This document shows, piece by piece, positions 21-4,532 of a stretch of 4,532 nucleotides of DNA. The notes beneath the pieces are model-generated. The model searched no databases. It was not told the origin of the DNA and was given only the letters and a program-made list of their open reading frames with translations. The stretch is from Naegleria gruberi. Its lineage: Eukaryota. The stretch lies in assembly GCA_000004985.1 (NCBI GenBank), contig GG739183.1; one strand, given 5' to 3'. Made by a program: the position numbers and the translations under genes. Position 1 is the first letter of the stretch. Each line of letters opens with the position of its first letter.

Positions 21-1267
21 ATATTAAAATTAAATAATTGTTATGAATTATTTTTAAATAACACTATTGAAAATAATGAAATAAATATAAATGAAAATCT
101 TAATATTTTAAATAATAATAATATAGAAATTAATAATAATAATTTAATAATTCATTCATTAAATAATTCTATAAAAAAAGAAGAATTATTAATAGAAAGA
201 ATTAAAAATTTAGAATTTCAAATTCAAGAATTAAATTTAAAATTAGAAGAAAAAGAAATTGAAAATTTTTATTTAACAAATCCAGAATTATTACCAAATA
301 TTAATATATCTAAAAATAGTAATAGTGGAAATGAATTTAAATTATTATCATCATTTAATTTATCTAATAATAATACTTCCAATTCTAGTAATATAAAAAT
401 AATATCATATAAAGATATAAAAATAGATAATAATATACCAACTATAAAAGGAGGATTATTTACAATTAATTTTGGAATTTTAAAAAATAAAGAATTTGAT
501 GAAATTAAAATAGCAATAAAATCAATTCAACTTGAATATAAAAATGATTTAGAAAAAATGATTAAAAAATTAAATTTAGATTTTTTATATAATTTATCAC
601 ATCCAGTTATAGAAAGAGTATATGGTATTACTAAAATAGGAAAGGAATTTAATATAATAGCAGAATCATGTCAAGGTATTATTTTATCACAATTATTATT
701 AAATAGAAATATTAAATTAAATTTACAAATGCAAATTAATTATTCATTTCAATTATCAAGTGTTTTTTTATATATTTTTGAACAAAATAGGACATGTAAT
801 TCAATTTCTATAAATAATATTTTAATTTTAAATNNNNNNNNNNNNNNNNNNNNNNNNNNNNNNNNNNNNNNNNNNNNNNNNNNTTAAAAATATTAACAAT
901 ATATACAATGCATGAATTTAAAAATATTAAAGAAAAGAAATTAGCATGTTGTAAAATATTAAAAAATTTAAGTTCAATTTGTTTTTGTATTTTAACAAGA
1001 GAATCATCTGAAAGATTAAATATACATTTTAATCAAGAAGAATTTTCACCAAATTATGAAAATTTAATTGATAAATATTTTAATTATACACCTACTAATA
1101 AGGATAAAGAATTAATAATTGAATATTTAAATATTATTAAATCATGTTTAAAATATTCTAAATATTTATGTAATAATTTAAATGATCAGGAAAATGATTT
1201 ATCAAATTATTATTTAAGAAAAATACTTTATCGTTGGAGTAAATTAAAAGATTATTCTAATTTATAA
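21..1267 (+). CDS. Partial gene, 5' end unresolved. N/I-rich low-complexity and coiled-coil-like N-terminal region (ELLIERIKNLEFQIQELNLKLEEKEIENF), then a protein-kinase-like domain from about 402 with degenerate catalytic motifs. Predicted TKL-like pseudokinase. The coding sequence is interrupted by the assembly gap 834-883 and resumes in a different frame to the stop at 1265-1267.
   Basis: Frame 0 is stop-free from 21 to the gap at 834. The ORF track shows only the part from the first in-frame ATG at 558. By eye the translation aligns to the kinase N-lobe and catalytic loop. TIKGGLFTINFGIL matches the glycine loop. IAIK (K at 519-521) matches the VAIK lysine. LSHPVIERVYGIT matches the hxHPNIVxLxG motif. 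NIIAESCQGIILSQLL matches the hinge (VTEYMxxGSLxDLL). TCNSISINNILIL (795-833) matches IHRDLKSxNLLL, with HRD replaced by CNS. After the gap, frame 2 is open from 884 with no ATG needed. It reads YTMHEF...SSICFCILTRE, which resembles the APE motif and the alphaF helix (DVYSFGxVLWELLT) of a degenerate kinase C-lobe. The gap length is arbitrary, so the frame change across it is uninformative. Confidence 0.6.
834..883. other. Assembly gap of 50 N inside the kinase-like domain of gene 1. Its true length is unknown. It probably hides subdomain VII (DFG) and the activation segment.
   Basis: Run of n characters. A 50-nt run is a conventional placeholder length. Confidence 0.95.
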
Positions 1268-1599: not shown

Positions 1600-1847
1600 A
1601 TGTCAACAACAACTACACCACCAACATCAACAGATCAGGAAAATACTTTACCAATTGCTTCATCATCTGGTGATTCCACTACTACTACAACAACAATAAC
1701 TCCATCATCACCATCTAATACTATAACAACAACACCATCATCTCCTGTTCTTCAACAAGAAGCCTCAACAACAACAAATGAACCTAAATTTGACTTTGAA
1801 ATTTCCCATAACAAATCTGTATATAATATTACAATGAGTGGTGATCA
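1600..1847 (+). CDS. 5' portion of a gene encoding a Thr/Ser/Pro-rich low-complexity protein (MSTTTTPPTSTDQENTLPIASSSGDSTTTTTTITPSSPSNTITTTPSSPVLQQEASTTTNEPKFDFEISHNKSVYNITMSGD...). It continues into the 733-nt assembly gap. Function unknown. It could be mucin-like and O-glycosylated, or could carry an N-terminal disordered region.
   Basis: The ATG at 1600 sits in the classic A-run start context (tttaaaaaaATG). Codon usage matches the other genes in the window. The frame is open to the gap edge. The ORF-track extension beyond the gap (to 2607) is an artefact of the arbitrary gap length. Confidence 0.55.
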
Positions 1848-2935: not shown

Positions 2936-4532
2936 ATGATAGAATCATTAGATTCACAATCGTATGATTCTAAACAGTCACCAACAAATCATCATCAACA
3001 TTATAATACTCATAATAATAATAATAATATATTAAATAATAATAATCAACAACAACAAGAACATTCTGAAATATTATCATCATTAGCACAAGAACAACAA
3101 GAACAACAAGTTGATGAAATACAAGATAAATCAATAGCAACTAATGGATCTAATTTAATATCATCTTCAACAAATAGTTTACATTCAATTTGGAATGAAA
3201 AGTCTAAATTTCAAAAATTAAAATATTATTTAAAAATACCATTATTAAAATCATCTAAATGTATTACTATTATGAATGTTTTATTAATTTTATTTATTTT
3301 ACAAGGTTTATTTGGTTTATTTTCATGTATGTTTTTTTAAATATTTATAATTTTAATAATAATTTTAATAATATTTTAATAATTTTAATAATAATTTAAT
3401 TAAATTTAAAAAGCATTTATATTATTATATACAACAGGTGATAATTTAATAGTACAATCAAGAAGTAATCAAAAATTACAAATGAAATCAGTAATTGATT
3501 ATGAAATTGGTGAAATGGTTAAAAGTACAACATTAATAATGAATCAATTATTATATCAAATTAAAAGTGGTGGACCATTTGATTTAAATAATAATATAAC
3601 ATGGTTTAGAATATTTTATTATTTAAAAAGATTATATGTACATAAATCACCTTTGAAAATGTTATATTTTGGTAGATTTGATCAGAGTTTTATTGGTGTT
3701 GAAGTTGATTTTGTTAGAGTACTTTTAAAAGCATCAACATTTACAAATTTAGAAAGAATGGGAACTGATTATCATTTAATTTCAGATCCAAATTTAATTT
3801 ATTCACCTTCCAATATCATTGAATCTAAGAATTGGACATTAGAAGTAACTAATAGAGCATGGTATTCAATATTTACAAAATATCAAACATCTAACAAGAC
3901 ATTATCAAATGTTAAATGGAGTCCACTATTTTCAAGTGTTAGTGGATTACCATCTATTACATTATCAATGCCAATCTATATTAATATACCAACTAGATAT
4001 TTATCTACCACTTATTCACAAAATAGAATTATACCCTATTTTCAATCAACTTTATCAAATAATATTACAACATTACCAAATATAAATTCATCTTCATTAA
4101 TAACATTAAATAGATATTTAAATATAAAAGAATCTATTTTAACAAGTGGAAATTCAAATGATTTATCAGATCCAATTATTAAAGAATTATATAATAAAAT
4201 AGATGTATCTGATTATTTATATGGAACAATTGGTATACAATTATCATTGGATGAATTAGCAAGTAGATTAAATCAATCAACAATTGAAGCAGGTGTTTCT
4301 TTAACTTTAATTATAAATTCTAATGCTGATATTGTTGCATGTACTGATTTATTTTATAATTTACAATATAATTCTAAATTTACAAATCAATCTAATTTAT
4401 CTAATTTTATTATACATTCTATTTTAAATCATTCCATTTTAAATTATGATTTTTTAAATAAAATTGAAACTTATAATAATAATAATGGAAATACAAATAC
4501 AAATAATGGAAATACAAATACAAATACAAATG
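2936..4532 (+). CDS. Two-exon gene, 3'-partial. Exon 1 is 2936..3326 and exon 2 is 3438..>4532. Predicted single-pass (type II-like) membrane glycoprotein of unknown family. It has an N/Q-rich N-terminal region, a hydrophobic segment CITIMNVLLILFILQGLFGLFSC (about 3260-3326), a large domain rich in N-x-S/T sequons, and a C-terminal N/G/T tandem repeat.
   Basis: Exon 1 is in the ORF track (2936..3340). It begins at ATG in an A-rich context (aacaATG). The hydrophobic segment ends exactly where GTATGT begins (3327-3332). The stretch 3341-3430 is about 95% AT with tandem repeats and is intron-like. An AG acceptor lies at 3436-3437. The intron is 111 nt, a multiple of 3, so frame 2 continues. I translated exon 2 codon by codon from 3438 to 4532 and found no stop (CDNLIVQSRSNQKLQMKSVIDYEIGEMVKSTTLIMNQLLYQIKSGGPFDLNNNITWFRIFYYLKRLYVHKSPLKMLYFGRFDQSFIGVEVDFVRVLLKASTFTNLERMGTDYHLISDPNLIYSPSNIIESKNWTLEVTNRAWYSIF...NGNTNTNTN). 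The first in-frame ATG of that open frame is not until 3482, with the frame open upstream of it. This favours splicing over an independent gene. Confidence 0.6.
3327..3437 (+). other. Predicted spliceosomal intron of gene 3. The GTATGT donor is at 3327. The AG acceptor is at 3436-3437. An alternative acceptor ttaatAG at 3451-3452 gives a 126-nt intron that is also frame-preserving.
   Basis: Canonical dictyostelid donor hexamer, extreme AT content, and a length typical of short amoebozoan introns. Both candidate acceptors keep the downstream frame open. Confidence 0.5.
3341..3416. repeat. Tandem repeat of a roughly 13-nt AT-only unit (aattttaataata, about 4-5 copies), intronic.
   Basis: Read directly: ataattttaataataattttaataatattttaataattttaataataatttaat. 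Confidence 0.6.
4475..4532 (+). repeat. In-frame tandem coding repeat (aataatggaaatacaaataca x2 plus a partial copy). It encodes NNNNGNTNTNNGNTNTNTN and runs off the window end.
   Basis: Direct repeat read from the sequence. It is a typical dictyostelid coding microsatellite. Confidence 0.7.

Follow-up and report, generated by a model that had tools for sequence, protein, structure and literature searches.

A Naegleria gruberi locus predicted to encode a pseudokinase domain, probably the C-terminal part of a heterolobosean tandem kinase protein

Pseudokinases are defined from sequence as kinase domains without at least one of the VAIK lysine, the HRD aspartate and the DFG aspartate (PMC13519141). 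The pairing of a pseudokinase with a live kinase is a recurrent regulatory device, found in the JAKs, in GCN2 and in plant tandem kinases. In the plant tandem kinase-pseudokinases (TKPs) WTK1/Yr15, RPG1 and Pm24, the active kinase comes first and the pseudokinase second, the latter having been proposed as a regulator or a decoy (PMC6170490). Here we describe gene 1, at positions 21–1267 of a 4,532-nucleotide (nt) stretch of Naegleria gruberi DNA (assembly GCA_000004985.1, contig GG739183.1), apparently an entire small scaffold and referred to in full as the window. We consider it likely that the product of this segment is the C-terminal portion of a tandem kinase protein of the Heterolobosea, comprising a coiled coil, a linker, a low-complexity spacer and a pseudokinase of the tyrosine kinase-like or tyrosine kinase (TKL/TK) type. 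The locus reveals an uncharacterised pairing of this kind that is conserved in Naegleria, the pathogen N. fowleri among them, and in Willaertia.

A word-index protein search with gene 1 gave no match. When 1.84 billion representatives were searched exhaustively with HMMER, using the translation of positions 390–833 as query, a small family was recovered in which the close matches were heterolobosean and metagenomic proteins only. These included P0002, a fragment of N. fowleri FDP41_010043 (E 6e-38, 46% identity; full length P0014, 798 amino acids, KAF0971820.1 / XP_044556536.1), the metagenomic proteins P0003 and P0004 (E 5e-27 and 2e-21), Willaertia magna ABK040_003349 (P0005, KAL9649672.1, 702 amino acids; E 8e-15) and the more distant metagenomic or run-assembly proteins P0006, P0007 and P0009 (E 7e-13 to 5e-7). 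The N. lovaniensis protein C9374_011615 (P0016) is 70% identical to that of N. fowleri. The Dictyostelium TKL kinases that the initial annotation had put forward for comparison are thus replaced by heterolobosean sequences, none of the closest relatives being dictyostelid. The three named orthologues are annotated only as hypothetical or as “non-specific serine/threonine protein kinase”, and full-text literature searches gave no paper on this heterolobosean kinase-pseudokinase family.

The family was defined as kinase – coiled coil – pseudokinase from P0014, P0016, P0005 and the metagenomic contig L004. Two kinase-profile stretches were detected by Pfam in each of P0014, P0005, P0007 and P0016. 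The first domain is intact, with HRDxKPAN, DFG and (A/S)PE, and its best solved relatives are PKR (E 1e-26), NEK1/2/7 and GCN2. This intact upstream kinase lies in one polypeptide with the pseudokinase in N. fowleri, N. lovaniensis, W. magna and two metagenomic relatives, while in the DNA of L004 the Pkinase exons stand directly 5' of the pseudokinase exon on the same strand. The order in the relatives is intact kinase, heptad segment of ~30 residues, linker motif, low-complexity spacer and pseudokinase. N. fowleri, N. lovaniensis, W. magna, P0003 and P0004 all share the conserved linker motif E-(I/L)-F-(Y/F)-L-x-H-P-E-x-x-P, of which P0006 and P0007 retain the E-I/M-F/Y part only; the motif may be a docking element for one kinase lobe. 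Since the coiled coil of the window and its NFYLTNPELLP sequence align to the linker of the relatives, gene 1 probably corresponds to the C-terminal half of the tandem protein. By inference, the N. gruberi protein very probably also has the upstream active kinase, the scaffold ending before it. Word-index protein searches with gene 1, gene 3 and N. fowleri P0014 returned no N. gruberi protein with an N-terminal kinase half; P0014 gave two matches, low-complexity words having filled its candidate list.

The initial annotation had treated gene 1 as a protein complete in itself, and the coiled coil and pseudokinase might indeed form an independent adaptor acting as a dimerising scaffold in trans. 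This is unlikely in our view. Of a tandem protein, the window does contain these two elements only, with all frames closed in nt 1–37, and the metagenomic model P0006 (320 amino acids) begins with a methionine just before the linker motif. However, no in-frame ATG lies between the stop at 18–20 and the first one at nt 558, inside the N-lobe; every relative whose flanking sequence is long enough has an active kinase 5' of the domain and on its strand; and the start of P0006 is unreliable, having been called by a prokaryotic-style gene finder on a 2.4-kb metagenome contig. In every orthologue with enough sequence, the heptad segment described earlier links the upstream active kinase to the pseudokinase domain. 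With its start codon missing, the coding region presumably extends beyond the 5' end of the scaffold, and this copy of gene 1 is probably truncated by the scaffold end.

The orthologues and the window have in common the pseudokinase domain (42–47% and 34–39% identity), the coiled coil, the linker, the losses at HRD and DFG and a short activation segment. The window differs in that the upstream kinase half is cut by the scaffold end, in being more AT-rich, in having CNS rather than IGA/IGL in the HRD slot and in lacking a GT at the conserved intron site described below. Compared with the plant TKPs, the heterolobosean orthologues show the same kinase-then-pseudokinase order, whereas the plant proteins lack a coiled-coil linker and have an independent origin. 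Plant TKP domains derive from receptor-like-kinase (RLK/Pelle) lineages. The family was not assigned to the plant TKPs because the domain origins differ, the first domain here being PKR/NEK/GCN2-like and the second JAK/BTK/FAK/MLKL-like.

In the JAK JH2-JH1 and GCN2 pseudokinase-kinase pairs, a pseudokinase is likewise joined covalently to an active kinase, and the family profile matches both JH2 and JH1 of JAK1. The pseudokinase is N-terminal in JAK and C-terminal in the heterolobosean orthologues, and with this reversed domain order and no FERM or SH2 domain found by Pfam, the family was kept apart from JAK JH2. JAK JH2 retains DFG and binds ATP with Mg, whereas the gene 1 domain has neither the DFG aspartate nor most of the activation segment. 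MLKL-type pseudokinases are also TKL-like, with substitutions in the catalytic loop and in DFG and a retained beta3 lysine, and the family profile matches the MLKL pseudokinase domain (E ~5e-10). They differ by a four-helix-bundle executioner domain, absent in this family, which has another partner domain, and the similarity is no closer than to active tyrosine kinases. The gene 1 domain belongs to an ordinary pseudokinase class and represents no novel type of system. Pseudokinases restricted to one lineage are common, and the locus indicates no new mechanism and opens no long-standing question. For N. gruberi, it adds one unannotated gene and flags a mis-modelled scaffold.

Against Pfam, the translation of 390–833 matched PF07714 (PK_Tyr_Ser-Thr) at 38 bits (E 1.5e-9; curated cut-off 23.1), the match spanning only positions 15–136 of the 258 in the profile. 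In the kinase-profile comparison proposed in the initial annotation, PF07714 was thus significant, but PF00069 reached 17 bits, under its cut-off, and positions 884–1267 alone gave no kinase match, only a sub-threshold ACDC match that was treated as noise. In phmmer searches of solved structures, the same region aligned to PYK2, FAK, JAK1 and ZAP-70. In the PYK2/FAK alignments, RTCNSISINNILI lies on CVHRDIAVRNILV, with the substitutions H to C, R to N and D to S and with the catalytic-loop asparagine retained, in agreement with the earlier reading of CNS in place of HRD. No weight can be given to this asparagine, as the orthologues have H, V or L at that position. An intron beginning at GT 796 was rejected, CNSISINNILILN aligning residue for residue with the catalytic loop and beta7 of the orthologues.

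Other motifs named in the initial annotation were recovered as well. The beta3 lysine of IAIK aligns to the corresponding lysines of PYK2 and BTK and is identical in the window and in eight of the eight relatives covering the region. This assignment was taken from HMMER alignments, since the MAFFT alignment A1 shifted the beta3 lysine of the canonical reference by four columns; the invariant lysine of alignments A1/A3 is the beta2 lysine (GILK) and not that of beta3. The window has both the HP motif (HPVIERVYG) and the hinge glutamate, which are conserved throughout the family. As had been suggested, the glycine loop is degenerate, with one conserved glycine left. At the alphaC glutamate position, family members carry N, G, D, Q or K.

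For the C-terminal piece of the gene (884–1267), the kinase relationship became visible only by comparison with orthologues (N. lovaniensis, tblastn E 1e-19). The sequence TMHEF in this piece had been interpreted as the APE motif. This did not hold, because the family alignment and the profile alignments to JAK1 and BTK place T-x-H on D-F-G: in the family profile, “elKlttlht” aligns on “vKIGDFGLT” of JAK1 and “vKVSDFGLS” of BTK. The alignments thus indicate that the DFG aspartate is lost too in the gene 1 domain, and that no APE is present at all. The identification of ICFCILTRE as the alphaF helix was upheld by its alignment with the helix ICWCILIRE in the model of the N. lovaniensis orthologue. 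In the Naegleria/Willaertia clade, the DFG slot and the alphaF anchor are separated by 18–20 residues, compared with 40 in a canonical TKL kinase (P0013), so that the activation segment of the window domain is ~20 residues shorter than the canonical one. The APE glutamate, the alphaF aspartate and the alphaH-I Arg-Pro are all lost in this clade.

The two parts of gene 1 are separated by an assembly gap of 50 N, and a DFG motif had been considered possible inside it, to be settled by resequencing. The orthologues align across the gap: the window sequence NNILILN – gap – LKILTIYTMH was matched with LYHIALNEQLTLPKITTWH of N. lovaniensis, with ~1 residue missing. The gap therefore hides neither a DFG motif nor an activation loop, and the refutation foreseen in the initial annotation, a catalytic aspartate within the gap, does not apply. 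A phase-0 intron shared by five relatives (N. fowleri, N. lovaniensis, W. magna, L004 and L005) interrupts the sequence between (I/V)(A/L/N) and (L/M)(N/S)(E/V), a site three codons before the gap of the window. The window shows no GT at this site, and G is absent from its last 30 bases before the gap. The intron may have been lost or moved into the gap; otherwise the contig ends cannot be relied on. Joining the contig ends through a TTAAA overlap yields the in-frame sequence ILILKILTIYTMH, in which the beta7–beta8 turn is three residues shorter than in all orthologues.

Across the family, the HRD slot reads CNS in the window, IGA in N. fowleri and N. lovaniensis, IGL in W. magna and LPG, LQS, FSA, FTV or YTI in other relatives; it is not conserved, and no member has an aspartate there. 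The DFG slot reads TMH in the window and TWH, TLH, NCH, CNY, NTH or SMQ in the relatives, with the aspartate absent in every member. In the deeper-branching P0006, P0007 and P0009, the activation segment has its full length and the alphaF aspartate is present, with APE-like SPE/PPE in P0006 and P0009 and the alphaH-I Arg-Pro in P0006 and P0007, P0009 stopping short of that region. The window carries the family signature, namely K-x-T-T/N-x-H at the DFG slot, HP-x-IE-x-x-YG, LLNRNI and a C-terminal xKL, and matches 45 of the 56 positions identical in the four nearest relatives and 18 of the 20 identical in six. Between N. fowleri and N. lovaniensis, the ratio of non-synonymous to synonymous substitution rates (dN/dS) is 0.20 in the pseudokinase, 0.12 in the active kinase and 0.84 in a low-complexity insert. 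The pseudokinase domain is under purifying selection.

With the HRD and DFG aspartates absent, the gene 1 domain is a pseudokinase by the definition given above (PMC13519141). Besides these two residues, it has lost the alphaC glutamate, all but one of the three glycines in the glycine loop, the APE motif and a stretch of ~20 activation-segment residues, and from the combination of these losses the domain is predicted to be unable to transfer phosphate by the canonical mechanism. The earlier proposal of a retained kinase scaffold with probable loss of phosphotransfer is strengthened in this way, the losses of the DFG aspartate, alphaC glutamate and alphaF aspartate and the truncated segment being added to those already noted.

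An atypical active enzyme, in which relocated residues carry out phosphotransfer or another nucleotide-dependent reaction, would be compatible with the beta3 lysine, which the window shares with all eight relatives covering the region, and with the histidine that the window and five of the seven covering relatives have as the third residue of the DFG slot (tyrosine and glutamine in the other two). WNK, CASK, SelO and WNG1 offer precedents. We nevertheless regard such an enzyme as highly improbable here, since the HRD slot is wholly unconserved, the catalytic asparagine is variable, no alternative invariant aspartate is found among the family-invariant columns, and the activation segment, the P+1 loop and APE are deleted. 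WNG1 is described as a kinase without a glycine loop (PMC6442604).

Structure prediction, which had been suggested as a way to confirm a bilobal kinase fold, supported a retained kinase scaffold. It covered the orthologue domain and the N-part of the window, the full window protein being interrupted by the gap. The AlphaFold2 model of the N. lovaniensis domain, built with an eight-row family alignment, had a predicted local distance difference test (pLDDT) score of 87.8 and a predicted template modelling (pTM) score of 0.88, and its Foldseek matches in the PDB were the kinase domains of JAK2, FAK, RET, Eph, EGFR and MET (E ~1e-12, template modelling score ~0.65). In this model a single long helix follows directly after beta8, in line with the deletion of the activation segment. 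The model of the window N-part (pLDDT 74.8) matched AXL, MerTK and the JH2 domains of TYK2/JAK2 at E ~1e-6. Taken with the profile matches, these models place the gene 1 domain in the eukaryotic protein kinase superfamily, with the bilobal fold predicted to be retained.

At the DNA level, the window is ~80% A+T, with N runs at 834–883 and 1848–2580. Frame 3 is open over nt 21–833, and coding resumes over 884–1264 in a different apparent frame. No stop occurs in the 271 + 127 codons of the two pieces, against 32 and 15 expected from base composition, and none of 20,000 shuffles of the pieces was stop-free (0/20000); the third codon positions are 96–98% A/T and positions 1 and 2 are not. On these grounds gene 1 is coding sequence rather than a chance open reading frame (ORF). 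Its GC content is 14–15%, under that of the flanking intergenic DNA (20–25%). This composition, together with the absent start codon, the lack of annotation for the ORF, a scaffold whose only gene model is a chimera of genes 2 and 3, and two assembly gaps, could point to a pseudogene, truncated at its 5' end and decaying, on a scaffold that is extremely AT-rich and poorly assembled. We hold this to be very unlikely, given 398 stop-free codons where ~47 stops are expected, the retention of 45 of the 56 family-identical positions and the third-position bias, which is a coding signature.

Several points weigh against our interpretation of gene 1 as the end of a functional tandem protein. No start codon is present and stops shut all three frames within nt 1–37; the upstream kinase half is unseen in N. 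gruberi, so that a 5'-truncated fragment is possible. Gene 1 has 14–15% GC, with 2–4% GC at third codon positions (GC3), compared with 24–32% GC in the orthologues (W. magna 24%, N. lovaniensis 32%) and 40% over the metagenomic contig L004, and no gene model exists for it in the N. gruberi annotation. The loss of activity is predicted from motifs, and the motif-deficient kinases WNK, CASK and WNG1 proved to be active. A regulatory role of the pseudokinase is proposed by analogy only.

Within the tandem reading, the coiled coil would dimerise the protein, and the live kinase may be regulated by the dead domain or use it for docking. PKR/GCN2/NEK-like kinases activate by dimerisation, which suits a coiled-coil dimer. 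One option is that the pseudokinase restrains or releases the live kinase within the same molecule, following the logic of JAK JH2; another is that it binds a partner or substrate, following that of the plant tandem kinases (PMC6170490). The conserved beta3 lysine may allow nucleotide binding independent of metal. The dimerising adaptor or allosteric partner suggested in the initial annotation would be a reasonable reading. A more far-reaching possibility, which we regard as speculative and rather unlikely, is a lineage-specific tandem kinase in which a PKR/GCN2/NEK-like domain and a dimerising coiled coil are combined with a TKL-derived pseudokinase without an activation segment, which would sense a ligand or partner to switch the live kinase. 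This would represent an independent third invention of the JAK and plant TKP logic, possibly in stress or anti-microbial signalling.

The positions of the features described are collected in Table 1.

Table 1. Features of gene 1 and the neighbouring gene 2, with coordinates in the window.
Feature	Position	Strand	Basis or remark
ORF part 1, frame 3	21..833	+	Open from the stop at 18-20 up to the gap
Putative short coiled coil, heptad-patterned (SIKKEELLIERIKNLEFQIQELNLKLEEKEIEN)	171..266	+	Heptads read from the sequence; alignment A1
Linker motif NFYLTNPELLP	264..296	+	A1 columns 48-57 conserved
Pseudokinase N-lobe, hinge, alphaD-alphaE and catalytic-loop remnant (predicted)	390..833	+	PF07714 E 1.5e-9; AlphaFold2 pLDDT 74.8; Foldseek
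Degenerate glycine loop TIKGGLFTINFGIL	441..482	+	Single Gly conserved in the family
beta3 (VAIK) Lys, IAIK	519..521	+	Aligned to the VAVK/VAIK Lys of PYK2 and BTK
HPVIERVYG, end of alphaC to beta4	600..626	+	Glu and Gly invariant in the family
C-N-S in the H-R-D slot	795..803	+	Catalytic Asp replaced by Ser (801-803), aligned to PYK2 HRD
Catalytic-loop Asn	816..818	+	Present in the window; H, V or L in orthologues
Assembly gap, 50 N	834..883	.	Changes the apparent frame; ~1 residue of the orthologue protein
ORF part 2	884..1267	+	beta8, truncated activation segment, alphaF to alphaI; stop TAA 1265-1267
T-M-H in the D-F-G slot	905..913	+	Metal-binding Asp replaced by Thr (905-907); family alignment, profile vs JAK1/BTK
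SSICFCILTRE, alphaF helix	971..1003	+	alphaF Asp replaced by Leu just upstream
Gene 2, UBFD1-like ubiquitin-domain gene, 5' end	1600..1847	+	MSTTTT...FDFEISHNKSVYNITMSGD; matches L004, N. fowleri and N. lovaniensis genes

The orthology of gene 1 is supported by its UBFD1 neighbourhood, which the window has in common with the N. fowleri and N. lovaniensis orthologues. In L004 the gene order is kinase-pseudokinase (+), UBFD1 (+) and ACOX (–), and the window shares the first two on the same strand; no ACOX gene was seen in the window. The ACOX-UBFD1 block of N. fowleri and N. lovaniensis is inverted relative to L004 and the window. A dictyostelid contaminant, suggested by the composition, the poly-N/T/Q tracts and a GTATGT intron, was rejected because the homologues nearest to gene 1 belong to Naegleria and Willaertia and the gene 1-UBFD1 order is that of a Naegleria-like metagenome contig. 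Gene 2 starts with MSTTT like its L004 homologue, and the 733-N gap (1848–2580) probably holds the remainder.

At the 5' end of gene 1, frame 3 reads ILKLNN from nt 21, resembling the sequences ILKFLQN and YILKH with which the upstream kinase domain closes in W. magna and N. lovaniensis. Within positions 1–126, a sequencing error at the scaffold end or an intron boundary (AG at 125–126) could explain the closed frames. An intron at 6–126 (GTGAAG...TAG) that would rescue the 5' end was rejected, because the junction codon read from the sequence would be TAA. Residues 1–312 of the N. lovaniensis protein P0016 (L001 10001–10936) form an N-terminal exon with faint leucine-rich-repeat matches, absent from the N. 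fowleri and W. magna proteins; this exon is probably a merged neighbouring gene and not a true domain.

The metagenomic contigs L004 and L005 (JGI metagenome 3300002220) represent two distinct family members, both ~39% GC, from one environmental sample. Their introns at the conserved site are very short (37 and 36 nt) and were called in-frame-length; one such metagenomic intron was translated as protein by the prokaryote-style gene caller (SIISTRYSMYKM in P0003).

The scaffold is extremely AT-rich, with 19.6% GC overall and GC3 of 2–10% over the coding segments of its three genes. Rfam, tRNA and tandem-repeat scans of the window gave nothing relevant. For gene 3, no Pfam match was obtained and no homologue was found besides P0001, the model from its own scaffold. 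P0001 (“predicted protein [Naegleria gruberi]”, 354 amino acids) is the sole database protein of the scaffold and is a chimera, in which exon 1 of gene 2 (from 1600) is spliced onto parts of gene 3. Gene 3 itself occupies 2936–3326 and, after an intron at 3327–3437, 3438–4532, where it runs off the scaffold end. Its N-terminus is rich in N/Q, a single hydrophobic segment is predicted (ITIMNVLLILFILQGLFGLF), and over 360 residues follow the intron, which is 111 nt long (GTATGT...CAG) with 6% GC.

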